Assembly: GCA_942491415.1 (NCBI GenBank)
Contig: CALOAD010000008.1
Span: forward strand, 29,896 to 93,895
Reading direction: 5' to 3'
Source of the DNA: Candidatus Gastranaerophilales bacterium
GTDB lineage: Bacteria; Cyanobacteriota; Vampirovibrionia; Gastranaerophilales; CALOAD01
DNA: 64,000 nucleotides
Part shown: positions 6,646 through 58,778 of the stretch, piece by piece
Layout: the number at the start of each line of letters is the position of its first letter
Position numbering within the stretch: position 1 is the first letter of the stretch
Program-made: the position numbers and the translations under genes
The notes under the pieces: model-generated
Told to the model about the DNA's origin: nothing
Seen by the model: only the letters and a program-made list of their open reading frames with translations
The model's database searches: none

Positions 6646-6665
6646 TTAAAACCCACACAACCCCT

Positions 6666-6741
6666 GGGGGGTTAGCTCAGTTGGTAGAGCACCTGCTTTG
6701 CACGCAGGGGGTCAGGAGTTCGACTCTCCTATCCTCCACCA
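6666..6741 (+). tRNA. tRNA-Ala (anticodon TGC), CCA encoded
   Basis: Hand fold: acceptor GGGGGGT/ATCCTCC including the G3:U70 Ala identity pair, anticodon loop TTTGCAC, T-arm AGGAGTTCGACTCTCCT, A + CCA. Confidence 0.9.
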
Positions 6742-10907: not shown

Positions 10908-11371
10908 CTGTTAGGTCGATAATATATGAATCATAGTTTTTGTTATCGCTGATTTTTTGCAGATTTATATTCATTTACTCCACTTGTAAGCCTTGTGCAT
11001 GCCTATTATAACGAAAAGATAATTCAAAATATATAATATACAAATAGTTATTACAAAATTATTTCATCTGCTTTATTAAGCTCCTCATTTGTATCTAACT
11101 CGATAATATTACCTTACACGCAGAAAAAAGGTCTAAATATGTTGTTTTGTGTTTTGCATCGATGAAGAGCAAACAAATATCGTTTGAAAGCCGTTCTAAA
11201 GCGTTTGAAATCACTCTAATAATCTTTTATGAGTTTAGACGTTGTAAATTGCTAAAAAACTCGTTCAACAGCTTCCTGCGATTTGAGTTGAGAAGTAAAA
11301 CCGTTCTCAAACTTCCATCATTTTCTGCAACCCCAAGCTATAATGCTAAAGCAGTGTAGAACAGGTGGCAT

Positions 11372-11710
11372 ATGAACAATCAAATTCTAAATGTGAATGA
11401 CAAATGGCTAGAGCTGAAAAAAGTTGCAGAATTAAAGAATGTAACCCCCAGAGGAATTCGCTTAGCAATTCAAAAAGGTAAATATATTTCACAAAGAGAC
11501 GTTGGTAATAGTTATAAAATATTACTTTCTAGTCTTGAACCTGATGTTCAGAACAAATATTTGAATGAATATTACATTAATATCGTAAGCTCTGAAACAT
11601 CACAATCACTTGCCATTATAGAAAATAAAAGACAAATTCCCCCTGTAAATACCCTGTTATTTAAAAATAAAAAGAGAATAGCACTACCAAAACTACAAGC
11701 ACCACCATAA
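11372..11710 (+). CDS. Small HTH DNA-binding protein, possibly an N-terminal fragment of a transposase/excisionase-like protein
   Basis: 112 aa. KWLELKKVAELKNVTPRGIRLAIQKGKY resembles the N-terminal HTH of Mu-type transposases and excisionases. Followed by a terminator. Confidence 0.4.
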   Translation: MNNQILNVNDKWLELKKVAELKNVTPRGIRLAIQKGKYISQRDVGNSYKILLSSLEPDVQNKYLNEYYINIVSSETSQSLAIIENKRQIPPVNTLLFKNKKRIALPKLQAPP

Positions 11711-11745
11711 AGCCGTCATCATTGCGATAGACGGCTTTCTTGTTT
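11710..11745 (+). terminator. Intrinsic terminator
   Basis: agccgtc ... gacggct hairpin followed by ttcttgttt. Confidence 0.6.
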
Positions 11746-11770
11746 GAAAAAGACCACTGTATGGGTGATT

Positions 11771-11811
11771 ATAAAGGGTCAGATGGTTTCATAAAAACGC
11801 TCACATAGTAT
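11771..11811 (+). repeat. Island direct repeat, copy R3 (matches the right half of R2)
   Basis: ataaagggtcagatggtttcataaaaacgctcacatagtat, 37/41 identical to 8383-8423. Confidence 0.7.
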
Positions 11812-11814
11812 TGA

Positions 11815-11968
11815 AAAAATAATTAGGTTATTTGAATTTCATAATAGTCCACACCCGTATCACAGAAAACATATTTTATGGATGTCGGGCATGTTTTTTT
11901 ATGTAGAATGCTAGTGCTTTAATGTCCTTGCCGTCTGACAGGCTGAGAATGTGATACTCTTTAGGCAT
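11815..11968 (-). pseudogene. Decayed 5' remnant of a PAPS-reductase-family gene (same family as P1-P4 at 48.9-58.5 kb)
   Basis: The minus strand from the ATG at 11968 reads MPKEYHILSLSDGKDIKALAFYIKK, then after a 2-nt loss MPDIH, then after about 8 nt lost YVFCDTGVD. Compare P2: KEYHILSLSGGKDSTALAFYIKENMPDIHEKIEYVFCDTGVD. Nucleotide similarity is visible across about 150 bp and is truncated at repeat R3. Confidence 0.75.
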
Positions 11969-13193
11969 TTGTAATCTCCCTGACTAAAGCCAATTGCTGA
12001 GGCTTTGAAAGCTTTTTAACAGCCTTATAAACACTATTTAAAACCTTGTCAAAATCGATTGAGTTCTTGCCTGTAAGATTTTCTAATCCTTGCGTTTTAA
12101 TAGCAATTTCTTTAATTTTCTGCTTAAAATCAGCAAGGTCATTATCGCACCAATCTTTTGGCACTCGCTTTTTATTCACTACGGTTGCAACTCTTTCTAA
12201 CCAACGATTATAAGGCAGGTCATCGATTAAGATATTATTAGCAAAAATCTTTAATTCATCATTTGAAATATATTCAAAGATATTTTTAAACTTAGTTTCT
12301 AATGCCTCTTTATCCGCTACTTTAATGCTTAGCGACTCAAACAAAAAGCTTTCAATCTCTTGTATAAGCGAGTTATAGCAAGAGTCCATTTCATCAAATG
12401 ATTGTTTTAATTCATCAATACTAAATCTTTTTAAATCTCTAAAAATAAGGGCGTGTGGTTCTTTGGCATTCATTATAATATTTCGCACTCGTTCTGTGGT
12501 TTTGGTTAGGATTGTGGTTTGTTTGGTAAATTTTTCCAATTCTCTAACTTTGACTACAATCCCTTTGACCAAGTGAAGTAGATTTGAAGTGTTTTCTTTT
12601 AAAAGAGTTTCTGATAAAAGCTCAATATACTTTCGCTTTTCACCATCAAAAATATTCTTTTGAAGCTCAAAGTTTTGAGGATTAGCCATTAGTCTATCAA
12701 ATAAAAGCGGAGTAATTTCTAGTGAAAAAGCATTTTTCTCATAAAGTGAAACTTTATCACCTTGCTTCAATAAAACATCAAGCAATAAAAGCGAAATAAT
12801 TGTTTTTGTCAGGCCGTATGGTTCACTTGATAGTTTTGTATAAAGCTCTTGGATATTCGATTTTACTTCAGCCCTGTGGATAAATATCTCAATTTCATCT
12901 CTAATGCATTTAATTTTAACATCTTTTCTAAAAAGCTCTTGAACCATTGCAAGCTCAACACTATTAGCTTTTAAATCTTTATCTTCAATTAAGTGTTTAA
13001 TTACTTCTCTAATAGCCTTAGTACCTGTTGCAGGTGGTTTATTCTGAGTTAAATATTCATTTTTAAAACTTGGGCATCTATCATATTTTTTGTCGAAATA
13101 ATTAGAAATCTCAGGTTGAGATAAATCCTCATCGCCTTCATATATTCTCGTAAAACCTGTTTCAATTAAATGTCGTTTTGCTAGTAGTGTCAT
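11961..13193 (-). CDS. Hypothetical protein (helical, 410 aa) directly upstream of the PAPS-reductase remnant
   Basis: Long ORF. Its stop at 11961-11963 lies 2 nt before the remnant ATG (11968). No motif I can name with confidence. Confidence 0.65.
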   Translation of the reverse strand: MTLLAKRHLIETGFTRIYEGDEDLSQPEISNYFDKKYDRCPSFKNEYLTQNKPPATGTKAIREVIKHLIEDKDLKANSVELAMVQELFRKDVKIKCIRDEIEIFIHRAEVKSNIQELYTKLSSEPYGLTKTIISLLLLDVLLKQGDKVSLYEKNAFSLEITPLLFDRLMANPQNFELQKNIFDGEKRKYIELLSETLLKENTSNLLHLVKGIVVKVRELEKFTKQTTILTKTTERVRNIIMNAKEPHALIFRDLKRFSIDELKQSFDEMDSCYNSLIQEIESFLFESLSIKVADKEALETKFKNIFEYISNDELKIFANNILIDDLPYNRWLERVATVVNKKRVPKDWCDNDLADFKQKIKEIAIKTQGLENLTGKNSIDFDKVLNSVYKAVKKLSKPQQLALVREITNA

Positions 13194-13251
13194 TAAAATT
13201 CCTTTCTTACATTTAGATAGTAGATGTAAGATAAAATTAATGACTATAAAT

Positions 13252-13503
13252 TTATTTATTTAAATCGCACCACTTTTTTTCTTCATTCCATTTCCAATTG
13301 TATTTTAGACAATTTTCTTTGGTTATTTTTACTTTTCCGTATTCAGTATTTACTTCTAACCCTTCAATACACTTGCCTGTATCCAAACAGTAATCTTTAT
13401 CATCAAAGAGTATAGTTGATCCAATAAAAATCAATATAATGGGAACTAAAATAATAATAAGTGATATAACAAATTTTTTCATAGTATTAATTTTATCATA
13501 CAA
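13252..13503 (-). CDS. Small membrane-anchored Cys-containing protein (candidate immunity/partner of the upstream gene)
   Basis: 83 aa with TM segment FVISLIIILVPIILIFIGSTILF followed by a 4-Cys ectodomain. Starts 9 nt after the MuF/SAA gene. Confidence 0.55.
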   Translation of the reverse strand: MYDKINTMKKFVISLIIILVPIILIFIGSTILFDDKDYCLDTGKCIEGLEVNTEYGKVKITKENCLKYNWKWNEEKKWCDLNK

Positions 13504-13512
13504 ATCAAATTA

Positions 13513-14169
13513 CTAATACTTATCAGGCAAGCCTTTAGGTCTTTCGCCTGGGTACATATCTCCGCAATCACCATCAGGATTGTCTTGTCCACATTCTCTA
13601 CCGGCTTTGTTTGCTTCCATATCTTCTTTAGCGTCTTCGATTTGCTCTATAAGGTCATAACCTTTAAATATTACATTATTTGCGCCTTCAATTAGCTCTC
13701 TGGCTAAACTGAGTGCTTCTGCAATTTTTTCCTGATCTCTTTGTGCTGCTTCGCAATTAGCCTTAAAGTGAAAATATTTATCAGCCCCAATAGTATTTGC
13801 TTCTTTCATGTCTTGATAATTTGAAGCAAAATCCCCTAGGGCATTATCCCAAGTTGCTATTTCTGAAATTATCCCGTTTACAGCACCTGAAAAAAATTCT
13901 CCCGCAGAAGATTGAAGTTCACTGACTAAATCACTTAACTCAGATTGAGCACTTTGAGTATCGCCTACAGCTTCATCAATTGCACTATAATCAGGCTCAT
14001 ACTCACAAGGTTGAGCATAAACTTCTTTTACTGCACAATCACAATTAGGATGAGGTCTATCAGGAGCATCTTCAGGATTCTTAAATTGAGTTCCGTTTAA
14101 TGCCTGACAAGCATCGCAAGAATCTCCACCTGCTTCCCATTCATAATGATCAATTATTTGTTCTTCCAT
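13513..14169 (-). CDS. Phage MuF C-terminal motif + serum amyloid A-like domain protein
   Basis: 218 aa. N-terminus: WEAGGDSCDACQALNGTQF...PHPNCDC (MuF/SPP1 gp7-type C-x2-C...HPNC-x-C). C-terminus: DMKEANTIGADKYFHFKANCEAAQR...ARELIEG...EANKAGR...PKGLPDKY aligns with vertebrate SAA [25 protein letters not shown]...ARENIQR...AANEWGR...PAGLPEKY, including the terminal GLP-x-KY. Confidence 0.8.
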   Translation of the reverse strand: MEEQIIDHYEWEAGGDSCDACQALNGTQFKNPEDAPDRPHPNCDCAVKEVYAQPCEYEPDYSAIDEAVGDTQSAQSELSDLVSELQSSAGEFFSGAVNGIISEIATWDNALGDFASNYQDMKEANTIGADKYFHFKANCEAAQRDQEKIAEALSLARELIEGANNVIFKGYDLIEQIEDAKEDMEANKAGRECGQDNPDGDCGDMYPGERPKGLPDKY

Positions 14170-14172
14170 TTT

Positions 14173-14718
14173 TTAGCTCCATTTCATTTTTAAATTATCT
14201 AAAACTTTATTTACTTTTCTTTCCGTATTAATCCTACGGTTATCTTTTGTGTCAAAAATTATATTATTTACTGCTCCACGCTTAATATATTTTTTAATAA
14301 CTCCTAGAGTGTAATGCTTTGATAGTTCAATTAATCGTGCTTTGGTTTTGTCTCCAAAGTCACCATCATATTTTACTTTCCAGCCTTTATTTGCAGCAGA
14401 AATAGCTTTCCCTTTATTTAAAAGATTAATACCCCTTTGAACATCCTTTATTGCTTGTTCTTTTCCAACATCTGCAATATGCTCTTCAATAAAGTTTAAA
14501 ATTTCTTGTGCTCTAGGACATGTCGCTAACTTGTGTTCTACTTCTTGTTTTGATGTTTCGACTTTTTGATTTTGCTGAACTTGTTTTTGACTTAATTCAT
14601 TGGAAAATGGTATTCCGCTACTACGCATTTGCTCCATAATTTCATTTTCTTTTGAAGAGAATTCATCTGATGTCATTTGGTCAATGAATTCTCGAGTGTA
14701 AATTCGTTTGTTTTTCAT
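14173..14718 (-). CDS. Hypothetical protein with peptidoglycan-binding-like motif
   Basis: 181 aa. VQRGINLL...YDGDFGDKTKARL resembles the PG_binding_1 signature (DG-x-FG-x-x-T). Confidence 0.5.
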   Translation of the reverse strand: MKNKRIYTREFIDQMTSDEFSSKENEIMEQMRSSGIPFSNELSQKQVQQNQKVETSKQEVEHKLATCPRAQEILNFIEEHIADVGKEQAIKDVQRGINLLNKGKAISAANKGWKVKYDGDFGDKTKARLIELSKHYTLGVIKKYIKRGAVNNIIFDTKDNRRINTERKVNKVLDNLKMKWS

Positions 14719-15158
14719 TTAATATTCCTTTCTATTTTATATTTTTTGCCATCAAATTTAATTAACCCCAATTCAAAAAATGGATTTTCAGGAGCATATT
14801 CTGAGTACATTTTTAGAAAGGCTTTAACGTCACGACTTATAGCTCTATCTGAAGCATCCTTAAATGTTTCTTTACAAGCTTCTATAAGCTTTTCCAATGA
14901 AAAAGAACTTTTCATTTTTGAAAAAGTAAACATCCACACCGGTAGTTCTAAAATCTGTTTATGCAGATTTTCAATACTTTTCAGGTCTTCCAAGTAGGGG
15001 TCTTCTTTTAAAATGCTTAAATCAAAAACGCTTTTCCAAAATTTTAAGCTATTGATTTTTGTTTTTCCAAGACCTGAATAATCTTCTTCTAGCATCCTTT
15101 TGAAATCTCTAAGGCAAGGATAATGCCCTTGGCTTCTGCCAATGGTGTTAATAGTCAT
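14715..15158 (-). CDS. Hypothetical protein (first gene of the island operon)
   Basis: 147 aa with a 4-nt overlap with the next gene. Preceded by two perfect palindromic sites. Confidence 0.55.
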   Translation of the reverse strand: MTINTIGRSQGHYPCLRDFKRMLEEDYSGLGKTKINSLKFWKSVFDLSILKEDPYLEDLKSIENLHKQILELPVWMFTFSKMKSSFSLEKLIEACKETFKDASDRAISRDVKAFLKMYSEYAPENPFFELGLIKFDGKKYKIERNIK

Positions 15159-47019: not shown

Positions 47020-47156
47020 AAATTATCCTTGAAATATACAAATTGAATATTTATATCAACAATTTAGCACATTGAATCTATTTAATTCCACAAAAATTAT
47101 GATTTAAAAAGCCTTAGTTAATTTTTAAATCACAACCTTTTTGATAATATAATTGT

Positions 47157-48917
47157 ATGAAAACTTTAAAATTCGGCTTTACCATAATTATTTTACTCTT
47201 TTTACTTTGGCTTTGTATTGACCATTTCTGGGGTTACAAGGTTTTAAAAGTTATAGATGGCGATACTCTCTATGTCGATCTAAATCGTAATAATAGGGCT
47301 GAAACGGAAGAAAAAATCAGAATAAAGTCTATAGATACTTTTGAAACAAAATATTCTTATCAATTATCAAAGCAATCAAGAAATTTTGGTATAACTAAAA
47401 AACAAGCTTTAGGGCTTGGTTATTTAGGCAAGGAATTTGCAAAGAAAAAGCTTTTGAATAAAAGAGTCAAATTGCAAATAGAAGGCAAAGGGGATTTTAA
47501 CAGAAAACTTGCTCATATTTATATTAACGGTAAAAACTATGAAAAATTAATCTTAAAAGAAGGCTTAGCTACTGTTTATAAACGTGCTGATGACGCAGAA
47601 AAATACCTGCAATATGAGAATACAGATAAAATAAAGCAAAATGCCCAAAAAGTCCAAAATTTAGACCTTGTGATATTGAATCTAAAAAACAACAAATATC
47701 ATAAACCCTACTGCAAATACGCCCGAAATATCAGCAGATTTGAGCTGGTAGAGAAGAAAAACCTGTCTCAAAATGCTAAAGAAGCAGGGTGTTGTGAAAA
47801 ATTAAAAGATTATAAGTCAAGTAAATTTGATGAAAAAATTTTTTTAAAAGATTTGGAAAAGAATAAAGCAGAAATGTTTTTTGTAAATCCAGTAAATGTT
47901 AAATATTCAGAAAATAGTTGTTTAAATTCGGTTTGTGGTTCATTATTAACCTTGATAAAAAGTGCTCATAAAAGTATTGATATAGCAGCCTATGGTTATT
48001 ACGGGCAAGATGATATTATAAACGCTTTAAGAGCTGCTAAACAACGAGGTGTAAAAATAAGAGGTGTTGTAGATGATACAACATACAAATTTTATCTTGA
48101 TACAAAAAAAGTACAATCTGAATTTGGATTTAAACAAGATTTTTTCACGCCAATTGGTTCAGGTAAAAAATTTAAATCAAAATTTACTCGGGAAACATCA
48201 GCATTAATGCATAATAAATTTGCAATTATAGATAATAAATATCTTTGGACAGGGTCAACTAATATTACAGATAGTGGAATGACAAAAAATGCCAATAATT
48301 CCATAGTTTTTTATTCTTCAGATATTTCTAATATTTACTTGCAAGAATTTAATCAAATGTACACAAATAATAAGTTTCATTCATTGAAAGATAAAATTTT
48401 AAATGCAAAAAATATAAAACTTAAAAAAGATTTCGATATATCGATTTATTTTTCTCCCAAGGATAAAGCTTTAAGGAATGCTGTAATACCTTTAATAAAT
48501 GAATCTACAGAAACTATAGAAATAATGATTTTTTATTTAACCAACAAAAAAGTGGTAAAAGCATTAGAAGACGCCCACTTTCGAGGTGTTAAAGTCAGAA
48601 TTATAATGGATTTTGAACCAACTGCGGAAATATATAGCCCAATAGATAGACTTAGAAAATTAGGTGTTTTAGTAAAAGCTGAGAATTGGGCAGGTAAAAT
48701 GCATATGAAAACAGCTATATTTGATAGAAAAAAAGTTGTGCTTGGTAGTACAAATTGGACTAGTACAGCAGAATATGTTAATGATGAAAATCTTTTAGTA
48801 ATAAAAAATCCAGTTATCACAACCAAAGTTTATAATGAATTTGAAAGGCTCTGGAATTCCATACCTGATAAATATTTAAAAATAAAAGCTTCAAAAAAAT
48901 ATTTTAAGAAAAAATAG
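47157..48917 (+). CDS. N1: membrane-anchored/exported staphylococcal-nuclease + double-HKD (PLD/Nuc-like) fusion, lacks the Cys-rich tail
   Basis: 586 aa. Anchor MKTLKFGFTIIILLFLLWLC. SNase motifs VIDGDT, IRIKSIDTFE, NRKLAHIY. YHKPYC...AGCC motif. HKD1 MHNKFAIIDNKYLWTGSTN. HKD2 MHMKTAIFDRKKVVLGSTN. Confidence 0.88.
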   Translation: MKTLKFGFTIIILLFLLWLCIDHFWGYKVLKVIDGDTLYVDLNRNNRAETEEKIRIKSIDTFETKYSYQLSKQSRNFGITKKQALGLGYLGKEFAKKKLLNKRVKLQIEGKGDFNRKLAHIYINGKNYEKLILKEGLATVYKRADDAEKYLQYENTDKIKQNAQKVQNLDLVILNLKNNKYHKPYCKYARNISRFELVEKKNLSQNAKEAGCCEKLKDYKSSKFDEKIFLKDLEKNKAEMFFVNPVNVKYSENSCLNSVCGSLLTLIKSAHKSIDIAAYGYYGQDDIINALRAAKQRGVKIRGVVDDTTYKFYLDTKKVQSEFGFKQDFFTPIGSGKKFKSKFTRETSALMHNKFAIIDNKYLWTGSTNITDSGMTKNANNSIVFYSSDISNIYLQEFNQMYTNNKFHSLKDKILNAKNIKLKKDFDISIYFSPKDKALRNAVIPLINESTETIEIMIFYLTNKKVVKALEDAHFRGVKVRIIMDFEPTAEIYSPIDRLRKLGVLVKAENWAGKMHMKTAIFDRKKVVLGSTNWTSTAEYVNDENLLVIKNPVITTKVYNEFERLWNSIPDKYLKIKASKKYFKKK

Positions 48918-49701
48918 TTATTAAACTTGAGGATAAATCAGTGTTTTCAAGCTTTTTTGTCATAGAATACTTTTCTTTTATTTTTTTTCTATTTTCTGGC
49001 TCTATAAGTTTTTTTAACGATAAATCTTTAATCCAATAAAAATAACCTTTTTTAATTTTGTCGTTATTGTAATATTCATAATTCATAGCTTTTTGAAATA
49101 ATTTTGGGTGGTTTTCATATAATCCGATCCATTCTATTTTTTTCTGATAAAAACAAAAATAACAACCGGAACGACTTCTCCAGTTGTAATAATCGGGGAA
49201 GCCTATTCCAGCTTTAGTTAATATATTTTCAATGTCTTTTTTTATGAGCCCTTTTTCCACAAAAGGAAAAGAAGCTTTTATATGCTCGCCGACACTTTTA
49301 TCGTTAGTAGCTCTATGGGATTCATCTGCTCTAATTCCTATATATAAATTTACGAGCTGTTTTTTTGAATTCTTTAGTTTGTCGAAAATATATTTATTAA
49401 AGGTTTTTGTTTTTAATTCAAAAGTACACCAACGATTATATTGAGTTGGTAAATATCCATTGCAATTAATCAAATGTTCAAAACTCTTTTCAGGCTTTAT
49501 TCGAGTGATTTTTTTATTTAAATAAACTTCTATTTTATTCAAATAATCATAAGTTTCAGGCAAATCACAACCGGTATCGCAAAAAACATACTCAATTTTT
49601 TCGTGGATTTCGGGCATATTTTCTTTTATATAAAACGCCAGTGCTGTAGAGTCCTTACCACCCGATAGACTTAGTATATGATATTCCTTTTCTTGTTCCA
49701 T
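48904..49701 (-). CDS. P1: PAPS-reductase-family PP-loop ATP pyrophosphatase
   Basis: 265 aa with SLSGGKDS, RWCTFELK, GIRADESHR and GCYFCF. Overlaps the N1 3' end by 14 nt. Confidence 0.88.
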   Translation of the reverse strand: MEQEKEYHILSLSGGKDSTALAFYIKENMPEIHEKIEYVFCDTGCDLPETYDYLNKIEVYLNKKITRIKPEKSFEHLINCNGYLPTQYNRWCTFELKTKTFNKYIFDKLKNSKKQLVNLYIGIRADESHRATNDKSVGEHIKASFPFVEKGLIKKDIENILTKAGIGFPDYYNWRSRSGCYFCFYQKKIEWIGLYENHPKLFQKAMNYEYYNNDKIKKGYFYWIKDLSLKKLIEPENRKKIKEKYSMTKKLENTDLSSSLITIFS

Positions 49702-50600
49702 GTAAAACTAACACTCCCAACGACTTTGTAAATATAAACAACTGTTTACTTTTATCAGGATAGCATATTTTTTTGTTTTGTAAACCCCTATATTCAGAAT
49801 CAGGTCTTTTTTTGAGGTTAATAAATCTTTAGCGGCAGGAATTTTAATATAAGAATTTATTAAAAGAACGTATTGCTTTTTACCGTCTTCTTTTTCATAG
49901 ACCCTAATTTTTGCAGATAAATCACAACCTTTTTGATAATATAATTGTATGAAAACTTTAAAATTCGGCTTTACCATAATTATTTTACTCTTTTTACTTT
50001 GGCTTTGTGTTGATCATTTCAAGGGTTATAAAGTTTTAAAGGTAATAGACGGTGATACTGTTTATATTGACCTAAATCGAAATAATAAGGGTGAAACGGA
50101 AGAAAAAATCAGAATAAAGTCTATTGATACTTTTGAAACAAAGTATTCTTACCAATTATCAAAGCAATCAAGAAATTTTGGTATAACTAAAAACAAGCTT
50201 TAGGGCTTGGTTATTTAGGCAAGGAATTTGCAAAGAAAAAGCTTTTGAATAAAAGGGTTAAGGTTGTTTTTGACGCCAACAGGTCAAAAGGTGACTATGG
50301 CAGAAAGCTGGCTCATATTTATATTAACGGTAAAAACTATGAAAAACTAATATTAAAAGAAGGATTGGCTGTTGTTTATAAACGTGCTGATGATGCAAAA
50401 GAATATTTAAAGTATGAAAACATAGAAAAAATAAAGCAAAATGCCCAAAAAGCCCGAGACTTAGACCTTGTAATACTGAATCTAAAAAACAATAAATACC
50501 ATAAACCTTATTGCAAATACGCCCATAATATTAGTAAGTTTGAACTGATTGAGAAAAAAGATTTGCCTAGGGATGCTAAACAAGCAGGATGTTGTAAGGA
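49500..50600. repeat. Conserved block B (P1 5' end + 247-bp spacer + N2 5' part); approximate edges
   Basis: Near-identical by eye to 52390-53500 and 55320-56415. Partial copies at 47127-47800 and 58300-58585. Confidence 0.8.
49734..49749. promoter_or_regulatory. Candidate operator aTAAAC-aact-GTTTAc upstream of P1
   Basis: 15/16 palindrome about 40 bp upstream of the P1 ATG. GTAAAC half-site at 49780-49785, with site starts 46 bp apart. Confidence 0.5.
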
Positions 50601-51822
50601 TTTGAAAGAGCCAATTATTTCTATAAAAGCAAACTATAGAATAAATAATCCGCCTAAAGAATTAAAATATTCAAAAAAGAATGAAATTGATACCAGCATA
50701 AAGTTGTTATTTAATAGTCCTTTAGTTTATAACGAATCGCCATCAGAAAAAAGCAAAACTCCTGTTGGAAAAACAATAATTGAAGAATTAAATAAGTTAA
50801 ATCATCAAGATATTTATATTGCAACTTATGGTTTTGCTTATCAACCTGAAATTGTAAATTCCTTTAAATATGCAGAAATTAGGGGTTATTCTCTTTTTGG
50901 TGTCGCTGATGTTGATATTCATAACAGAAGTATTTATCGAGATACTCATTATGTTATGCAACAAATAGGCAAATGGCAGACTGATCATAAGGCCAATTTA
51001 GAGCAACAAAAATATAGACCTAAATATAATGGAAGTATAATGCATAATAAATTTATAACCTTCGGCAAAAATAAAGTCTTAACAGGTTCTACAAATTTTA
51101 GCTCATCAGGAACAGGTGGTTTAAATGCTAATTTATCAATTTTGATAACTTCTCCCGTAATAACCAAAGCTTTTATCCAAGAAGCAAAGCAAATGTATGA
51201 GAAAAAATTATTTCACGAATTTAAAACACCTTACTATATAAAAAACGTAGAATTAGATGATAAAAGCATTGTTTCAGTTTATTTTTGCCCAAATCCTTTA
51301 GTTATTAATGAATTAGTTAAAAATATAGACAATGCAAAAAAATATGTTTATGTAGCAATGTTTTTTTTGACTCATAATAAAATCATTAATGCCCTTGAAA
51401 TTGCTAATAATAGAGGAGTAGATGTTAAGGTGATAACTGATGCTTCAGCAGCTCAAGAAATTTTTTCAAAACATCACAAAATAAGAGCTAAAAATATTCC
51501 TGTAAAAGTCGAAAATTGGACAGGTAAAATGCATATGAAAACTATTATTATTGATGATGAACTTTTTACGGTTGGTTCAATGAATGCTACAAAAACTGCA
51601 GAAACTAAGAATGATGAAAATATTGTTATCGTTAAAAACCCAAAATTAGCAAAAGAATTAAAAAATATTTTTAATCAATTATATATTTCTATTGACGATA
51701 AATGGTTAAAAGAAACACCATTAGCAGAGTCTTTTCAGTCCGGCAATTCTTGCAACGATGGTATTGATAATGACCACAATTGGAAATATGATAATCAAGA
51801 TAATAGTTGCAAAGTGCATTAA
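49949..51822 (+). pseudogene. N2: SNase-PLD paralog interrupted by a -1 frameshift in a poly-A run
   Basis: Track ORFs 49949..50203 and 50245..51822 together match N3 end to end. N2 has ctaaaaacaagc (A5, 50189-50193) where N1, N3 and N4 have A6. HKD1 also reads HNKFITFG (Asp replaced by Gly). Confidence 0.8.
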
Positions 51823-52589
51823 TAAAAGTCTAAAAGATTTGGTATGAAATTTTGAGTCTTAGGATTTTTTTTATTATTAGCTTTTATTTTTTCTATATTT
51901 TCAGGTAAAATAAGCTCTCTTAAAAGCATATCCATATTCCAACCAATTTTATTTTTGCCATCATCAATTTCATAAGACATAGCCTTTTCGAACAATTCAG
52001 GATTATTTTCTTTTAATCTTAACCAACTCATTTTAGTTTGATAAAAACAAAAATAACATCCGTTTCTATTGCTCCATTTATAATACTCAGGGAAATTAAT
52101 ACCATTATCAATTAATATTTTTTCAATATCAGGCTTGTTTAATCCAGCTTCTATAAAAGGATACAGTTGATTAACAAAATCTTCTCCCCCGTCAGGCTTT
52201 GATCGATGAGCCTCATCAGATCTAATTCCTATATATAAATTTAACTTTTTACAATTTTGATGAAAACGTTCTTTTTTAAATTTACTAAAAGGCTTTAATT
52301 TTAGCTCAATAGTACACCATCTTCTATGAGGAGCAGGTAGACACTTATAAATACTATATAAATGTTCAAAGCTTTTCTCAGGCTGAATATAAGTAATTTT
52401 TTTATTTAGGTAAACTTCAATTTTATTCAAATAGTCATAAGTTTCAGGTAGGTCCACCCCCGTATCGCAAAAAACATATTCGATTTTTTCGTGGATGTCG
52501 GGCATATTTTCTTTTATATAAAACGCTAATGCTGTAGAGTCCTTACCTCCCGATAGACTTAGTATATGATATTCCTTTTCTTGTTCCAT
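51819..52589 (-). CDS. P2: PAPS-reductase-family PP-loop enzyme
   Basis: 256 aa with the same motifs as P1. Its stop overlaps the N2 stop in TTAA (51819-51822). Confidence 0.88.
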   Translation of the reverse strand: MEQEKEYHILSLSGGKDSTALAFYIKENMPDIHEKIEYVFCDTGVDLPETYDYLNKIEVYLNKKITYIQPEKSFEHLYSIYKCLPAPHRRWCTIELKLKPFSKFKKERFHQNCKKLNLYIGIRSDEAHRSKPDGGEDFVNQLYPFIEAGLNKPDIEKILIDNGINFPEYYKWSNRNGCYFCFYQTKMSWLRLKENNPELFEKAMSYEIDDGKNKIGWNMDMLLRELILPENIEKIKANNKKNPKTQNFIPNLLDFY

Positions 52590-53500
52590 GTAAAACCAAC
52601 TCTCCCAACGACTTTGTGAATATAAACAACTGTTTACTTTTATCAGGATAGCATATTTTTTTGTTTTGTAAACCCCTATATTCAGAATCAGGTCTTTTTT
52701 GAGGTTAATAAATCTTTAGCGGCAGGAATTTTAATATAAGAATTTATTAAAAGAACGTATTGCTTTTTACCGTCTTCTTTTTCATAGACCCTAATTTTTG
52801 CAGATAAATCACAACCTTTTTGATAATATAATTGTATGAAAACTTTAAAATTCGGCTTTACCATAATTATTTTACTCTTTTTACTTTGGCTTTGTGTTGA
52901 TCATTTCAAGGGTTATAAAGTTTTAAAGGTAATAGACGGTGATACTATCTATGTCGATTTAAATCGTAATAATAAGGCTGAAACGGAAGAAAAAATCAGA
53001 ATAAAGTCTATTGATACTTTTGAAACAAAGTATTCTTACCAATTATCAAAGCAATCAAGAAATTTTGGTATAACTAAAAAACAAGCTTTAGGGCTTGGTT
53101 ATTTAGGCAAGGAATTTGCAAAGAAAAAGCTTTTGAATAAAAGGGTTAAGGTTGTTTTTGACGCCAACAGGTCAAAAGGTGACTATGGCAGAAAGCTGGC
53201 TCATATTTATATTAACGGTAAAAACTATGAAAAACTAATATTAAAAGAAGGATTGGCTGTTGTTTATAAACGTGCTGATGATGCAAAAGAATATTTAAAG
53301 TATGAAAACATAGAAAAAATAAAGCAAAATGCCCAAAAAGCCCGAGACTTAGACCTTGTAATACTGAATCTAAAAAACAATAAATACCATAAACCTTATT
53401 GCAAATACGCCCATAATATTAGTAAGTTTGAACTGATTGAGAAGAAGAATCTGCCTCAAAATGCCAAACAAGCCGGGTGTTGCAAGGGATTAAAAGATTT
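52390..53500. repeat. Conserved block C (P2 5' end + 246-bp spacer + N3 5' part); approximate edges
   Basis: See block B. Confidence 0.8.
52622..52637. promoter_or_regulatory. Candidate operator aTAAAC-aact-GTTTAc upstream of P2
   Basis: Same site as at 49734. GTAAAC half-site at 52668-52673. Confidence 0.5.
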
Positions 53501-54749
53501 TAAAAAGAATACTTTTAATTATAAAGATAATTCATTAGAAGTTTATTTTTTTGATCCTAATATTAACTATTTTAATCAGGCAAACGAGGGAAAATATGCT
53601 CTCATTAAAGCTATTAATGATTCAAAGAATAAATTGTATTTTGCAATTTATGGAATTTCAAACTATGACATTATGAATGCTCTTATAGCTAAATATGAGA
53701 ATGGTATTGATGTTCAATGGGTTACTGATATAAATAAATATGGAAAGAATAATTACTCTAAGACACATTTATTGCAGAAAAAAATCCATAATTTTAATAT
53801 TGATAAAATTGCTGAACAATTTAAAGCCAACCGAAATCAAAAATTTGAATATTATATTGACGGAAAGAAGTACACAAGAGAGTTTACTGATAGTCAAATT
53901 AAATATTTTACAGATCAATTAATGCATAATAAATTTTTCATTTTTGACAATGATTTAATTTCAACAGGCTCAGTTAATATGAGCGTATCGGGAATTGAAG
54001 GACAAAATGCAAATGATTTATTGATAATTAATTCACCTAAAATTAATCAAATTTACACTCAAGAATTTCAGCAGATGAAATCAGGTTTATTTCATAAACA
54101 AAAGAAAAAGATTAAGAACAAAAAACACTTAAAACTTGATAATGGCTTTAATATTTCTGTGTATTTTGCTCCTTATGATAATGATTTTATGCTTGATGTT
54201 ATTCAAATAATCAATGAAGCAAAAGATTTTATTTATATACCAATGTTTTTCTTTACGGATAAAAAAATCCCCCAAACTCTTATAAATGCTAAAGAAAGAG
54301 GCGTTGATGTTAGGGTTATACTTGATGCTACTTCAGCAGCAAGAAAATACTCAAAACACGAAATTTTAAGGGAAGCAGGAATAAAAGTTAAGGTTGAAAA
54401 CTGGGCAGGTAAAATGCATATGAAAGCATTAATTACAGAATGTTACGTGGTTACAGGCAGTTTAAACTGGACGAATAGAGCTCAGTTTTTTAACGACGAA
54501 AATTCTTTGATAATTAAAAATAAAAAATTATCTAGCATTTATAAAGAATTTTTCTTAAGTCTTTATGAGTCAATTCCCAATAAATGGTTAACTTTAAATC
54601 CAAGAGCTGAAAGCTGGGATAGTAAAGGCTCTTGTAAAGATGGTATTGATAATGACCACGATGGATATACAGATTTAAAAGATTTTGATTGTAGCAAAAA
54701 ATCCCCTCAGGGTGTTGATTTTGAAGATTATTATCATAAACAAAATTAA
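52836..54749 (+). CDS. N3: exported SNase + double-HKD fusion with Cys-rich DGIDNDHDG tail
   Basis: 637 aa. N-terminal 200 aa nearly identical to N2. HKD1 MHNKFFIFDNDLISTGSVN. HKD2 MHMKALITECYVVTGSLN (Asp position is Glu). Tail GSCKDGIDNDHDGYTDLKDFDC. Confidence 0.88.
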   Translation: MKTLKFGFTIIILLFLLWLCVDHFKGYKVLKVIDGDTIYVDLNRNNKAETEEKIRIKSIDTFETKYSYQLSKQSRNFGITKKQALGLGYLGKEFAKKKLLNKRVKVVFDANRSKGDYGRKLAHIYINGKNYEKLILKEGLAVVYKRADDAKEYLKYENIEKIKQNAQKARDLDLVILNLKNNKYHKPYCKYAHNISKFELIEKKNLPQNAKQAGCCKGLKDFKKNTFNYKDNSLEVYFFDPNINYFNQANEGKYALIKAINDSKNKLYFAIYGISNYDIMNALIAKYENGIDVQWVTDINKYGKNNYSKTHLLQKKIHNFNIDKIAEQFKANRNQKFEYYIDGKKYTREFTDSQIKYFTDQLMHNKFFIFDNDLISTGSVNMSVSGIEGQNANDLLIINSPKINQIYTQEFQQMKSGLFHKQKKKIKNKKHLKLDNGFNISVYFAPYDNDFMLDVIQIINEAKDFIYIPMFFFTDKKIPQTLINAKERGVDVRVILDATSAARKYSKHEILREAGIKVKVENWAGKMHMKALITECYVVTGSLNWTNRAQFFNDENSLIIKNKKLSSIYKEFFLSLYESIPNKWLTLNPRAESWDSKGSCKDGIDNDHDGYTDLKDFDCSKKSPQGVDFEDYYHKQN

Positions 54750-55522
54750 GCTAGTAATTCATTTAAATTCTGTTGAGCAGCTTTCTTTTTTGCTCTTTGT
54801 TCTTCAAGTTTTTTATACTTTTCTTTATAAAATTTGATATTTTGAGGTTTGCATAAATCTTTTAATCTTATTTCTTGTAGCCATCCAAGTTCTTTTTTTT
54901 CAAAATTCATTGCTTTTTTATAAAGATTCGGGTGATTTTCATAGAGCTTTATCCAATCAAGCGGATTTTGAAAAAAGCAAAAATAACAACTGGAACGTTC
55001 TTTCCATTTATAATAATCAGGCAATAATATTCCTGAATTCATTAAAATATTAACAATATCATTTTTATTTAATCCATTTTCTACAAACGGATAAATCCTA
55101 AAAAGATTTTCAGGATCATCGTAAATCCGCTTTGCACGTTGAGGTTCATCCGCTCTAAATCCAATATAATTATAAACTTTGGAATTATTTTCCAGCTTAG
55201 ATTTTATGTATTTTAAAAAAGGTAAAGTCTTTAATTCACTTGTGCACCAACGATTAGCTATGGATGGTAAAAATCCATTTGAAGATTCAACTAAATGTTC
55301 AAAACTTTTCTCTGGATGTATTCTTGTTATTTTTTTATCTAGAAAAATTTCTATCTTATTCAAATAATCATAAGTTTCAGGCAAATCTACACCGGTATCG
55401 CAAAAAACATATTCGATTTTTTCGTGGATGTCGGGCATATTTTCTTTTATATAAAACGCTAATGCTGTAGAGTCCTTACCTCCCGATAGACTTAGTATAT
55501 GATATTCCTTTTCTTGTTCCAT
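54746..55522 (-). CDS. P3: PAPS-reductase-family PP-loop enzyme
   Basis: 258 aa with SLSGGKDS, RWCTSELK, GFRADEPQR and SCYFCF. TTAA stop overlap with N3 (54746-54749). Confidence 0.88.
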   Translation of the reverse strand: MEQEKEYHILSLSGGKDSTALAFYIKENMPDIHEKIEYVFCDTGVDLPETYDYLNKIEIFLDKKITRIHPEKSFEHLVESSNGFLPSIANRWCTSELKTLPFLKYIKSKLENNSKVYNYIGFRADEPQRAKRIYDDPENLFRIYPFVENGLNKNDIVNILMNSGILLPDYYKWKERSSCYFCFFQNPLDWIKLYENHPNLYKKAMNFEKKELGWLQEIRLKDLCKPQNIKFYKEKYKKLEEQRAKKKAAQQNLNELLA

Positions 55523-56415
55523 GTAAAACCAACTCTCCCAACGACCTTGTGAATATAAACAACTGTTTACTTTTATCAGGATAGCATATTTTTTTGTTTT
55601 GTAAACCCCTATATTCAGAATCAGGTCTTTTTTGAGGTTAATAAATCTTTAGCGGCAGGAATTTTAATATAAGAATTTATTAAAAGAACGTATTGCTTTT
55701 TACCGTCTTCTTTTTCATAGACCCTAATTTTTGCAGATAAATCACAACCTTTTTGATAATATAATTGTATGAAAACTTTAAAATTCGGCTTTACCATAAT
55801 TATTTTACTCTTTTTACTTTGGCTTTGTGTTGACCATTTCAGGGGTTATAAAGTTTTAAAGGTAATAGATGGCGATACTGTTTACGTTGATTTAAACAGG
55901 AATAATAAGGCTGAAAAAGAAGAAAAAATCAGGATAAAATCTATTGATACTTTTGAAACAAAGTATTCTTACCAATTATCTAAACAATCAAAGGTTTTTG
56001 GTATAACCCAAAAACAAGCTCTCGGGCTTGGTTATTTAGGTAAGGAATTTGCCAAGAAAAAGCTTTTGAATAAAAGGGTTAAAGTGCAAATAGATGGTAA
56101 AGGGGATTTTAACAGAAAACTTGCCCATATTTATATTAACGGTCAAAACTATGAAAAGCTAATATTAAAAGAAGGGCTAGCGAGCGTATATAAGAGAGCT
56201 GATGATGCAGAAAAATACCTGCAATATGAGAATACAAATAAAATAAAGCAAAATGCCCAAAAAGCCAAAGACTTAGACCTTGTAATACTGAATCTAAAAA
56301 ACAATAAATACCATAAACCTTATTGCAAATACGCCCGTAATATCAGCAGGTTTGAACTGGTAGAGAAAAAGCATCTGCTCCAAGCAGATGCAAAACAAGC
56401 AGGGTGTTGCAAGAA
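55320..56415. repeat. Conserved block D (P3 5' end + 246-bp spacer + N4 5' part); approximate edges
   Basis: See block B. Confidence 0.8.
55555..55570. promoter_or_regulatory. Candidate operator aTAAAC-aact-GTTTAc upstream of P3
   Basis: Same site as at 49734. GTAAAC half-site at 55601-55606. Confidence 0.5.
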
Positions 56416-57649
56416 AAAAAACTTTATAAATCATAAAGAACAGAGAAAATATTTACAATCAAACAATATTACAAATCCTGTTTTTGAAAAAGCGGTTCCT
56501 GATATACAAACAAAAAATATTGAATTGTATTTTATTGATCCTACAAAATATAAAAAACCTGTAAATTATTGTCGTACTGCTGCTGTTCAAGCTTTGATTA
56601 GAGAGATTGATAAGGCTAAAAATACTATAGATTTTTCAGTATTTGGTTTTTCTAATCAACCAGAATTGATTAAATCAATAAAAAAAGCTTCTTTGCGAGG
56701 AGTAAAAGTGAGATGGGTTACAGATGTTACTCCTTGGAATTTTAATTTTTATTCGGGAACAAAAGAAGCAATGAAGAAAATTCCTAATTATAAAACTGAT
56801 TTTAATACAGATAAAAAATTGCTTGAAAAGTTTCGAAAAAAAGGAATGAAAAGTTATAACGGGACTTTAATTCATAATAAATTTTTTATAATTGATAATA
56901 AGTTAGTTTGGACTGGTTCTACAAATATTAGTTCTTCTGGGACGGGAGGTTATAATGCCAATGTTTCAGCTCTTATTCGCTCTAAAAAAATAGCTAATAT
57001 TTATACAAAAGAGTTTAATCAAATGTTTATCGAAGAAAAATTTCATAGAGATAAGCAAAAGATCTTTACTAAAAATTTGATTTTAAAGGATGGTTCTATT
57101 ATTTCTATTTATTTTTCTCCTAATCCTTCAATTATTGATGAAGGTATAACTCCTGTTATAAGTAGTTCTAACTCTTTTATTTATATGCCAATGTTTTATC
57201 TTACAAATGAAAAAATCTTCGAAGCTTTAATTGGAGCTAAAAAAAGAAATGTAGATGTGAAAATTATAGTTGATGCTCATTATGCTAAAAGCCAACATTC
57301 AAAAGTTAAAAAGCTTAGAGATGCGGGAATAAAATTGAAAGTAGAAAATTGGGGCGGTAAAATGCATATGAAATCTATGATAACGGACAATGACTATATA
57401 GTAATAGGCTCCACCAATTTTACAAAAACAGGAATAACACAAAATGATGAAAATATGTTAATTATCAAAAACTCAAAATTAAATCAAAAGTTTAAATCTG
57501 AATTTTTAAAATATTGGAAAAGTATTCCTGATAAATGGCTATATAATAGTCCTTTGCCAGAAGGCAAAGACAGTATAAATTCTTGTAGCGATGGTATAGA
57601 TAATGACCACGATGGTTATTACGATAAAAAAGATTTTGATTGTTCTTAA
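55769..57649 (+). CDS. N4: exported SNase + double-HKD fusion with Cys-rich DGIDNDHDG tail
   Basis: 626 aa. HKD1 IHNKFFIIDNKLVWTGSTN. HKD2 MHMKSMITDNDYIVIGSTN. Tail NSCSDGIDNDHDGYYDKKDFDC. Confidence 0.88.
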   Translation: MKTLKFGFTIIILLFLLWLCVDHFRGYKVLKVIDGDTVYVDLNRNNKAEKEEKIRIKSIDTFETKYSYQLSKQSKVFGITQKQALGLGYLGKEFAKKKLLNKRVKVQIDGKGDFNRKLAHIYINGQNYEKLILKEGLASVYKRADDAEKYLQYENTNKIKQNAQKAKDLDLVILNLKNNKYHKPYCKYARNISRFELVEKKHLLQADAKQAGCCKKKNFINHKEQRKYLQSNNITNPVFEKAVPDIQTKNIELYFIDPTKYKKPVNYCRTAAVQALIREIDKAKNTIDFSVFGFSNQPELIKSIKKASLRGVKVRWVTDVTPWNFNFYSGTKEAMKKIPNYKTDFNTDKKLLEKFRKKGMKSYNGTLIHNKFFIIDNKLVWTGSTNISSSGTGGYNANVSALIRSKKIANIYTKEFNQMFIEEKFHRDKQKIFTKNLILKDGSIISIYFSPNPSIIDEGITPVISSSNSFIYMPMFYLTNEKIFEALIGAKKRNVDVKIIVDAHYAKSQHSKVKKLRDAGIKLKVENWGGKMHMKSMITDNDYIVIGSTNFTKTGITQNDENMLIIKNSKLNQKFKSEFLKYWKSIPDKWLYNSPLPEGKDSINSCSDGIDNDHDGYYDKKDFDCS

Positions 57650-58500
57650 GCAAAAGATCCAATTAAAAATTTAGTTGGTAATTTTATGATTTTCTTTTTA
57701 TTTAATTCATATTTTTCTTTAATTGCTTTTATATTCTGAGGTTTAATAAGCTCCCTTAATGAAAAACCCTCTGCCCAGGTATAATTTTCCTTGCAGCAAT
57801 TTTCTTCGTAGTACATAGCTTTTTCATAAAGATCAGGATGGTTTTCAAATAGTTTAATCCATTCAATTTTCTTTTGATAAAAACAAAAATAGCAACCGGT
57901 TCGACTTCTCCATTTATAATAATCAGGATAATTTATACCATTTTTAATTAAAATTTTCTCAACATCTGCTAAATCTACACCATTATCAACAAAAGGATAT
58001 TGAGCCTTGATAAATTGTTTTTCCAATTCTGTTTTAGAGGAAAATCCTCTATCAGCTTCATCTGCCCTAATTCCAATATACAAATTTATAATACCTTCGC
58101 CTTCTTTTTCAAGTTTTTCTTTAATAAAATTCTGAGAAGTTTTGATTTTAAACTCATATGTACACCAACGTTGCTTTGCAGATGGTATCATTTTGTATTG
58201 TTCATATCTTTCATCAAAACTTTTAGGGGGTAAAAGCCGTAAAACAGGCTTATTCAAAAAAACTTCTATTTTATTGAGATAATCATAAGTTTCAGGTATT
58301 TCTAAGCCGGTATCATAGAATACATATTCTATCTGTTCGTGGATATTGGGCATATTTTCTTTTATGTAAAAAGCCAATGCTGTAGAGTCCTTACCTCCTG
58401 ATAGGCTTAGTATGTGATATTCTTTGGGTTTATAATCGCCCCTTTGGGGCTCCTTGCCTCCTGATGGGCTTAGTATATGATATTCCTTTTCTTGTTCCAT
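57646..58500 (-). CDS. P4: PAPS-reductase-family PP-loop enzyme with a duplicated 5' segment
   Basis: 284 aa. MEQEKEYHILSPSGGKE...KPKEYHILSLSGGKDS, a 63-bp in-frame repeat of the PP-loop-coding segment. TTAA stop overlap with N4 (57646-57649). Confidence 0.85.
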   Translation of the reverse strand: MEQEKEYHILSPSGGKEPQRGDYKPKEYHILSLSGGKDSTALAFYIKENMPNIHEQIEYVFYDTGLEIPETYDYLNKIEVFLNKPVLRLLPPKSFDERYEQYKMIPSAKQRWCTYEFKIKTSQNFIKEKLEKEGEGIINLYIGIRADEADRGFSSKTELEKQFIKAQYPFVDNGVDLADVEKILIKNGINYPDYYKWRSRTGCYFCFYQKKIEWIKLFENHPDLYEKAMYYEENCCKENYTWAEGFSLRELIKPQNIKAIKEKYELNKKKIIKLPTKFLIGSFA

Positions 58501-58532
58501 GTAAAACCAACTTTCCCAATGATTTTATAAAT

Positions 58533-58548
58533 ATAAACAACTGTTTAC
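58533..58548. promoter_or_regulatory. Candidate operator aTAAAC-aact-GTTTAc upstream of P4
   Basis: Same site as at 49734. GTAAAC-cctt at 58579-58588, as in the island site at 15251. Confidence 0.5.
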
Positions 58549-58778
58549 TTTTATCAGGATAGCATATTTTTTTGTTTTGTAAACCCTTTTAGACTTTTAA
58601 TCTTACATATTTAATAAAAAACAGGTTTAATCTGCTATCGGGTAGTCTTGTTGTTTAGATATAAAATCACTCTGATAATCGCAAGGTTTATTCCCTAGCG
58701 CAATGAAAAGATCTCTAAAAATTGGTTATATAAAATTAGTGATTATTCATTCTTATTAACCGTCTGTTTTTCAGCTGT

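Follow-up and report, generated by a model that had tools for sequence, protein, structure and literature searches.

Tandem convergent gene pairs of gut Melainabacteria couple an SspD-like enzyme to a predicted exported nuclease

A 64,000-nucleotide window of a Candidatus Gastranaerophilales genome (assembly GCA_942491415.1, contig CALOAD010000008.1, positions 29,896 to 93,895 of the forward strand) contains four tandem units, each made of two convergent genes that we call N and P. The N-P pair is a conserved, multi-copy module of gut Melainabacteria (Gastranaerophilales). Judged by homology, P is a cytoplasmic member of the SspD family of PP-loop ATP pyrophosphatases, a close SspD homologue and not a generic 3′-phosphoadenosine-5′-phosphosulfate (PAPS) reductase, and N is a predicted exported two-headed nuclease that would work outside the cytoplasm. 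A third gene, X, which accompanies P in some loci, by its domain matches joins an SspB-like piece to the C-terminal domain of SspC without the ATPase, and would tie the module to Ssp DNA modification. SspD is an ATP pyrophosphatase that binds SspA and is thought to pass sulfur into DNA (PMC7188994). The module is unusual in its extremely reduced modification machinery, in the predicted export of its nuclease, and in multi-copy arrays whose 5′ ends are concerted.

Results

In the spacer alignment, homology between the units begins about 40 bp 5′ of the N1 ATG (~47117) and stops about 105 bp past the P4 start (~58600). An initial annotation of this DNA had placed the array at 47127-58585, which was right to within ~15 bp. 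The eight open reading frames (ORFs) it described, with their lengths, the spacings between successive N starts (2792, 2887 and 2933 bp) and a frameshift in N2, were all reproduced by our ORF scan. The features are as follows.

47117..58600, both strands: whole array; four units of convergent N (+) and P (-), with spacers common to the units
47157..48917, +: N1, 586 aa; hydrophobic signal or anchor at aa 1-24, staphylococcal nuclease (SNase) domain at ~aa 27-165, YH-x3-C...CC motif at aa 181-213, tandem-HKD Nuc-like domain at ~aa 230-586; lacks the C-terminal acidic disulfide repeat
48904..49701, -: P1, 265 aa; SspD-like PP-loop ATP pyrophosphatase (SGGKDS, RWCT, CYFC); 3′ overlap of 14 bp with N1
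49702..49948: spacer between units 1 and 2, with divergent promoter-like sites; equivalents at 52590-52835 and 55523-55768; 99% identity in units 1-3
49949..51822, +: N2; N architecture in two frames, with G for D in the first HKD motif
51819..52589, -: P2, 256 aa; SspD-like; 3′ overlap of 4 bp with N2
52836..54749, +: N3, 637 aa; N architecture plus a C-terminal acidic double-disulfide repeat
54746..55522, -: P3, 258 aa; SspD-like; 3′ overlap of 4 bp with N3
55769..57649, +: N4, 626 aa; N architecture plus a C-terminal acidic double-disulfide repeat
57646..58500, -: P4, 284 aa; SspD-like, its 5′ end partly duplicated in frame; 3′ overlap of 4 bp with N4

The convergent 3′ ends of N and P thus overlap by 4-14 bp in all four units. 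The frameshift in N2 is due to one A missing from a run of six (A5 at 50189-50193); possibly N2 is decaying, or the shift is a homopolymer sequencing error. A 16-nt hairpin (CAAGCTTTAGGGCTTG), kept within all four N genes (47403-47418, 50194-50209, 53082-53097 and 56015-56030), lies directly 3′ of the A-run where N2 is frameshifted, and was flagged on both strands by a terminator scan. Every spacer contains the same P promoter-like site, TTTACA-16-TG-TATCCT, and an N promoter-like site just 5′ of the ATG; these are consensus matches only, since promoter-like sites showed no excess over shuffled sequence (64 vs 69). An Rfam scan of the window detected three tRNAs only, with no riboswitch or other RNA element in the spacers. 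GC content is ~0.28 over the array and ~0.27-0.35 per 2-kb window along the whole stretch.

The pair is found well beyond this contig. A genome scan seeded with the P alignment returned 485 relatives; locus counts given here are from the best 80 loci, in which ORFs were called and searched with hidden Markov models (HMMs) built from the window genes. Nearly all of these loci belong to Gastranaerophilales (Melainabacteria) metagenome-assembled genomes (MAGs), often several to a MAG, and the few whose contigs carry other taxon labels are equally low in GC. Among full-length P genes with room downstream, 84 of 95 are convergent with an HKD gene, at -46 to +90 bp, and the 1:1 pairing first noticed in the window is therefore conserved elsewhere. 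The SNase module is present in half of the N partners and absent from the other half. Further tandem arrays were seen, one of three units in Clostridium sp. CAG:768 (L059) and others of two units at five more loci. Exceptions to the 1:1 ratio are L020 (7998-9631), L021 (7998-9631) and L082 (6410-8777), where one convergent N is preceded by two or three P genes in tandem.

P and the HKD domain co-diverge, with the same nearest neighbor in 52 of 75 pairs and the observed correlation reached in none of 500 Mantel permutations. Over 38 orthologous-pair comparisons the median omega was 0.09 for P and 0.12 for N, at synonymous divergence (dS) up to >1; both genes are therefore functional, and the pair lineages are old. 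In a neighbor-joining tree, 78 of the 86 P proteins linked to a phospholipase D-type (PLD) gene fall in one clade devoid of SspC-linked SspD, and the canonical SspDs form a clade of their own. The settings of the module are sometimes defense-island-like, with type I-C CRISPR-Cas (which the pair adjoins in L001-4) or TIR, PIN and GIY-YIG genes. No transporter or salvage gene recurs beside the pair among the neighbors in the 80 loci. A viral origin was rejected: one of 80 viral-contig matches was of this type, the others being canonical Ssp or distant phage PAPS reductases. In L030, a more distant PAPS-reductase-like gene of 316 aa (3242-4192) sits 4 kb from an X-P/N module, among ORFs judged phage-like, and adjoins an ORF in which a D12 adenine-methyltransferase-like motif was seen by eye.

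P, initially placed in the PAPS-reductase family, can be assigned more precisely to the phosphorothioation branch of that family, and within it to SspD. In addition to the expected Pfam match (PAPS_reduct), P matches the PADLOC SspD model over nearly its full length (E 1e-81 to 1e-89), and is co-linear with and 42-50% identical to SspD within canonical sspBCD operons. Relatives on plasmids, found by tblastn, are 40-47% identical and stand in canonical Ssp operons, in the order DUF4007 protein (SspB), ~1100-aa SspC, SspD. The canonical Ssp locus of Vibrio scophthalmi (L088) also has a cysteine desulfurase and a DUF262 SspE, and is the only locus where DUF262 SspE was seen. A Desulfobacteraceae locus (L085; 50% identity to P) has SspB, SspC, SspD and SspA, confirmed by PADLOC and Pfam. 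After this SspB-C-D-A operon, at 9978-14510, comes a 1510-aa NERD nuclease, protein kinase and STAND-like protein, which may be an undescribed Ssp effector.

Aligned with canonical SspDs, P keeps SGGKDS, RWCT, DE..R and SGCYFCF, and three cysteines are invariant across the P family. The AlphaFold2 model of P (mean predicted local distance difference test, pLDDT, 84.6) has a PP-loop/PAPS-reductase fold. Its nearest relatives are PAPS and adenosine-5′-phosphosulfate (APS) reductases, at a template modeling (TM) score of ~0.5 and 15-18% identity; next come GMP synthase, LarE and TtuA. A sequence search of P against the Protein Data Bank (PDB) gave no match, and the fold search gave generic PP-loop relatives only. 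We rejected three other identities for P. The housekeeping enzyme CysH is excluded by NCBIfam cysH scores of 18-22 bits against cut-offs of 154-165, solved CysH structures being 15-18% identical at TM ~0.5. DndC is excluded by TIGR03183 scores of 21-32 bits against a cut-off of 290, and P has no dnd neighbors. BrxP of type 4 BREX gave a partial match only (E 1e-12 to 1e-15), and no PglZ, BrxC or BrxL was present in the loci examined.

Every N copy in the window has one SNase domain (Pfam E 1e-10 to 1e-11) and two PLDc_2 domains, as the initial annotation had proposed. Alignment to staphylococcal nuclease showed that D19, D21, R35, D40, T41, E43 and R87 are all kept in N1-N4, among them the Ca ligands (D21, D40, T41) and catalytic residues (R35, E43, R87). 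The YH-x3-C...CC motif between the SNase and HKD modules is likewise intact in all four, and an acidic double-disulfide repeat forms the C-terminus of N2-N4. Two HKD motifs had been claimed for each N; in the form HxK(x)4D...GSxN both are seen in N1, N3 and N4, and in N2 the first motif has G in place of D. The nearest solved proteins to the HKD half are the periplasmic endonuclease Nuc of pKM101 (1byr, E 1e-14), Zucchini/MitoPLD and NucT (6ehi), and with their motifs and similarity to Nuc, N1, N3 and N4 would belong, by sequence, to the HKD nucleases of the PLD superfamily, Nuc/NucT type.

The assumption that N is exported agrees with a crude hydropathy rule, which scored a signal-peptide-like N-terminus in 66 of 75 N partners against 2 of 75 P proteins, with a small-x-small motif in 65 of the partners. 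Typical N-termini of the family are MKKILAIALILTTVSIIPVSAS; those in the window (MKTLKFGFTIIILLFLLWLC) have a strong h-region ending in LWLC, which could be a cleaved signal or an anchor. NCBIfam scores were well under the cut-offs for NucT, EcnA, DrmC, DpdK and cardiolipin synthase, and these identities were rejected for N. For DISARM DrmC in particular, NF038319 gave 37-95 bits against a cut-off of 133, no DISARM genes are nearby, and N has a signal-peptide-like N-terminus.

The initial description was of two components. The pair is real, but a third component, X, had been missed. Found by clustering the neighboring ORFs, X (~455 aa) immediately precedes P on the same strand in about 20 of the 80 loci, with a few to ~30 bp between the two genes. 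SspC models match the last ~300 residues of X (E 1e-41 to 1e-46; model positions ~750-1050 of 1054), and its N-terminus is winged-helix-like with weak matches only. X has no SspC ATPase part, and a long form also carries a ~130-aa DUF4007 (SspB) piece. In L173 an intact X (548 aa) and P (295 aa) are convergent with N (645 aa), beside TIR, PIN, GIY-YIG and D12-methylase genes; the three-gene form X-P/N also occurs in L089-91 and L174. In the assembly collection the N protein of L089-91 is indexed in 94 blocks; gut metagenome assemblies account for all three places listed. From computational analysis, the region of BrxC/SspC that follows the ATPase (two winged helix-turn-helix domains flanking an alpha+beta domain, then a coiled coil) has been proposed to be an extended DNA-binding interface (PMC12839542). 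The predicted model of X (pLDDT 77.5) gave no significant PDB match, and the function of X is therefore read solely from its SspB/SspC homology.

The window has its own X, 34 kb from the array and in two parts.

11961..13193, -: C-terminal portion of X, 410 aa; homologous to the C-terminal domain of SspC, no ATPase
14715..15158, -: N-terminal portion of X, 147 aa; piece resembling DUF4007/SspB, parted from the rest of X by an insertion
13252..14718, -: cassette genes A, B and C, 1.5 kb, interrupting X; membership of the system is not implied

The C-terminal part matches the X-family HMM (E 2e-99) and PADLOC SspC (E 3e-47; model positions 658-1062 of 1104), and is 52% identical to aa 135-548 of the intact 548-aa protein P0242. 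The N-terminal part matches Pfam DUF4007 (E 7e-14) and PADLOC SspB (E 3e-12), and is 52% identical to aa 2-127 of the same protein. Since P0242 spans both window ORFs, they represent one X gene split by the 1.5-kb cassette, whose edges are marked by a 15-nt direct repeat at 13193-13207 and 14719-14733. The cassette genes encode 181 aa (A), 218 aa (B) and a hydrophobic 83 aa (C); in B a CxxC...HPNCDC motif lies at the N-terminus, and the C-terminus is SAA-like by Pfam (E 2e-18). The same cassette adjoins X or P in L013 (X-A-B-C-P) and L006 (A-B-C-P), and in L044, L058 and L063 genes like B and C are situated ~1.2 kb upstream of P. The cassette may be a mobile unit of toxin-immunity-like character, or else an additional accessory of the system.

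The array had been described as a tandem amplification. As a recent event this did not hold up, the paralogues being ancient and only their 5′ ends homogenized. At the DNA level the opening ~620 bp of N, which cover the signal, SNase and Cys motif, are 80-100% identical between units. In units 1-3 the spacers agree at 99% over the ~150 bp nearest N. Identity is ~70-85% at the 5′ end of P and falls sharply to 45-60% in the HKD half and the body of P. At the protein level the PLD/HKD parts are 45-51% identical between units, and each is nearer to a pair from another genome (57-62%) than to its neighbors in the array; the PLD half of N4 is 91% identical to P0122 of a related genome. That the HKD domains are closer to pairs of other genomes than to one another implies that the array is ancient. 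On these alignments the array is a set of old paralogous copies whose 5′ "constant" segments are being homogenized. N2 and N3 share stretches at 100% identity within this 5′ segment, which points to gene conversion. At the 5′ end of P4 (~58438-58500) the N-terminus of the protein is partly duplicated in frame, with a degenerate second PP-loop (MEQEKEYHILSPSGGKE...KEYHILSLSGGKDS), and this duplication suggests a trace of recombination in the conserved 5′ segment. An assembly artifact or a recent duplication was ruled out by the 45-60% DNA identity of the variable parts and by the greater similarity of each copy to pairs from other genomes; the divergence of the units as paralogues likewise argues against chance.

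Discussion

The module resembles the SspABCD-SspE and SspABCD-SspFGH systems in that P is close to SspD with all motifs, X keeps an SspB piece and the SspC C-terminal domain, and a modification enzyme is paired with a nuclease. It differs from them in its missing components, in the lack of a CxxCH tail from most P proteins, in the convergent, overlapping partner gene, and in its many paralogous copies per genome. Among the Ssp components SspD is present, as the PADLOC match and the identity to canonical SspDs indicate. No ATPase part of SspC, the ~1100-aa AAA+/P-loop ATPase that neighbors SspD, was found in the window or the 80 loci. Full SspB (the DUF4007 nickase) was not found in the Melainabacterial loci, in which the SspB of L085 has no homologue; only the ~130-aa piece in long-form X is present. 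There is no SspA cysteine desulfurase among the ~38 larger window ORFs scanned or the recurrent neighbors of the loci. The position of the phosphorothioate-sensing restriction partner, SspE or SspFGH, is taken by the predicted exported SNase/HKD nuclease. We also rejected the possibility that sspA, sspB or sspC is hidden among the ~38 larger ORFs scanned, as the flanks scanned proved to be mostly housekeeping genes. A housekeeping desulfurase can stand in for the dedicated one in Dnd and BREX (PMC12839542), and an SspA in the cluster is therefore not strictly required.

Other known systems share parts of the arrangement. Type 4 BREX (BrxP-BrxC-PglZ-BrxL), which makes phosphorothioate (PMC12914056), also combines an SspD-related PAPS-reductase-domain enzyme with a BrxC/SspC-type protein. 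However, BrxP is a ~780-aa DUF4007 fusion, and PglZ, BrxL and the BrxC ATPase are absent near P in the loci examined. The analogies that had been drawn to type 4 BREX and to DISARM DrmC thus fail on score cut-offs and neighbors. Nuc (pKM101), NucT (Helicobacter pylori) and secreted staphylococcal nuclease are the closest counterparts of N, given its nearest HKD relatives, complete SNase catalytic residues and signal-peptide-like N-termini, and stand-alone relatives of the same architecture are common. In contrast to these enzymes, N joins both nuclease types, with tandem HKD halves, in one chain, scores under the NCBIfam NucT and EcnA equivalog cut-offs, and is tied in this lineage to an SspD-like gene. 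Phosphorothioation modules paired with varied nucleases, HKD ones included, are an established pattern (PMC10853773). Dnd modules with HKD endonucleases such as PbeA (PMC10853773) likewise place a phosphorothioation gene beside an HKD nuclease, but those nucleases are cytoplasmic SF2-helicase fusions that accompany a complete module (DndC, DndD, DndE). Type II restriction-modification with convergent R and M genes offers a further parallel as a convergent enzyme pair with several diverged specificities possible and a modification partner that is seldom lost, except that the "R" here is predicted to be exported and has relatives that survive without "M", and that "M" is a PP-loop enzyme and not a methyltransferase.

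We hypothesize that the module is a cut-down Ssp-type DNA-marking system coupled to an exported nuclease, in which DNA outside the cytoplasm is destroyed if it is unmarked and spared if it is marked; this is a tentative reading, to which we give somewhat less than an even chance. According to this hypothesis P would place a backbone mark, most likely a phosphorothioate, on the cell's own DNA, together with a housekeeping cysteine desulfurase and with X acting as the DNA-binding adaptor. The cognate exported nuclease would degrade unmarked DNA met in the periplasm or at the cell surface (environmental, transforming or invader DNA), and would spare, or treat differently, DNA carrying the matching mark. 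Several diverged pairs could then provide several independent mark-nuclease specificities, and overlapping convergent transcription may balance N and P, as in many restriction-modification systems. A more ambitious form of the proposal is a restriction-modification-like system acting outside the cytoplasm, in which a minimal, ATPase-less Ssp derivative writes a kin-specific backbone mark on the chromosome and matching exported nucleases, in the periplasm or at the cell surface, gate DNA uptake or the persistence of extracellular DNA (eDNA) according to self or non-self origin, with several independent mark-nuclease specificities per genome. We regard that form as rather doubtful.

The marking hypothesis should be interpreted with caution, since a number of observations weigh against it. 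In characterized systems phosphorothioation depends on a desulfurase, the nickase SspB and a P-loop ATPase, SspC or DndD (PMC7188994, PMC12914056), none of which is in the module. The CxxCH(L) C-terminal tail, present in all four canonical SspDs examined, is gone from 65 of 80 PLD-linked P proteins, including P1-P4, and the chemistry may therefore differ. X is missing in cis from ~75% of the loci and is split in the window. There is no obvious need to protect self-DNA, since an exported nuclease should never come into contact with the chromosome of its own cell. The co-divergence of P and N may reflect physical linkage alone. Finally, the nucleases commonly occur without P. In a PLD-seeded scan of metagenome contigs, a convergent P was present for 10 of 63 full-length exported HKD genes (with or without SNase) that had room downstream, and absent for the other 53. 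By an unrooted clade analysis, the stand-alone relatives of N form two clades (43 and 26 leaves) that hold no P-linked member.

As a stand-alone exported enzyme the nuclease family is widespread in gut, marine, sediment and freshwater samples, and another relative of N adjoins minCDE with no P. The initial annotation had reasoned that finding N as a generic nuclease without P would speak against the pairing. The 53 genes go part of the way towards this, but they form clades apart from the P-linked ones, and only two singletons among the stand-alone genes fall inside the P-linked diversity. Coupling to P is therefore lineage-specific, and stable within a lineage in both directions.

Nuc-type nucleases are metal-independent. 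N might simply be a nuclease for scavenging or for degrading eDNA, and P no more than a safety catch that marks the chromosome only against a mislocalized cognate N cutting before export. What is known of the SspD-like enzyme and of the nuclease supports this explanation equally; with an HKD half nearest the Nuc-type enzymes, N could cut the chromosome before export without a metal cofactor, P almost never occurs without N, and the convergent overlap suggests balanced expression. We nevertheless hold it to be unlikely: toxicity before export cannot be general when 53 of the 63 related exported nucleases have no partner, Sec substrates are normally exported unfolded, and the long upkeep of several diverged pairs is left unexplained. 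P could also act on something other than DNA, thiolating or adenylating tRNA, a nucleotide, or imported oligonucleotide products of N, so that the pair would be a scavenging or salvage unit. The missing SspA, SspB nickase and SspC ATPase functions, the lost CxxCH tail, a fold common to tRNA thiolases and LarE, and the ordinary secreted nucleases related to N in many environments all agree with such a role. It is, however, quite improbable in our judgment, as P is far nearer to SspD (42-50% identity) than to tRNA or sulfate enzymes (15-18% to solved structures), X retains SspB/SspC regions proposed from computational analysis to bind DNA, and the neighborhoods lack a recurrent transporter or salvage gene.

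The contrast between the first 620 bp of N (80-100% identical between units) and the HKD half and P (45-60%) is reminiscent of a polymorphic toxin-immunity array, in which a variable HKD toxin on a constant N-terminal carrier is delivered to competitors and P confers immunity through modification of the target. The tandem array, the putative secretion signals and an unrelated toxin-like cassette nearby would also suit this interpretation. Known immunity proteins are small binders encoded co-directionally downstream, which the convergent 260-aa enzyme does not resemble. No recognizable trafficking or translocation domain was found, the SNase "carrier" is wholly absent from half of the partners, and the orthologues are under strong purifying selection (omega ~0.1) in stable lineages and not in rapid turnover; we therefore think a toxin-immunity array very unlikely. 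The same low standing applies to the absence of any biochemical coupling, with the genes together through linkage or through antisense regulation at their overlapping 3′ ends. Linkage alone would yield co-divergence, but it does not readily account for an arrangement kept across dS > 1 in many genomes, many paralogous lineages and differing neighborhoods, nor for P being almost never alone and only rarely lost within the P-linked N lineages.

The initial annotation did not recognize the pairing as any described system, and we agree: in the PMC/bioRxiv literature on SspD, PAPS reductase or DUF4007 with PLD/HKD, and on Melainabacteria or Gastranaerophilales with phosphorothioate or nuclease, we found no description of the pair, and the comparative surveys PMC10853773, PMC12914056 and PMC12839542 do not mention it. 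The survey in PMC12914056 required a neighboring P-loop NTPase, and this published dnd/ssp survey would therefore have missed the P family. If the marking hypothesis is correct, SspD-type backbone modification can proceed with far fewer parts than in the characterized Dnd, Ssp and type 4 BREX systems (no dedicated desulfurase, nickase or ATPase). The module would then be the first case of a DNA-marking enzyme coupled to a nuclease acting outside the cytoplasm, possibly allowing self/non-self discrimination of DNA ahead of cell entry. It would also give a function to a large multi-copy gene family of the gut Melainabacteria, most of which are uncultured and which are poorly understood. Should the mechanism prove wrong, the conserved X-P/N module would still offer a concrete, testable entry point.

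Additional observations

Outside the array, most of the ~38 larger ORFs scanned have housekeeping roles (PNPase, DnaG, RpoD, Der, TrmFO, YhdP, signal peptidase, RNase HII, L19). A Fic-domain protein (6947-8041, minus strand; PADLOC SoFic E 3e-50) lies a few kb from the split X. Adjoining X is a 784-aa protein (8553-10907, minus strand) in which Pfam recognizes only a C-terminal SEC-C domain, and which contains a "DG...ILEIK" stretch resembling a PD-(D/E)xK nuclease motif. A 1191-aa protein (26767-30342, minus strand) combines a double zinc ribbon, an AAA_16 ATPase and MalT-like tetratricopeptide repeats, a STAND-like architecture. The tRNA-Ile(GAT)/tRNA-Ala(TGC) pair, usual occupants of the 16S-23S spacer, stands alone at 6569-6741 (plus strand) in a window in which no rRNA was detected.

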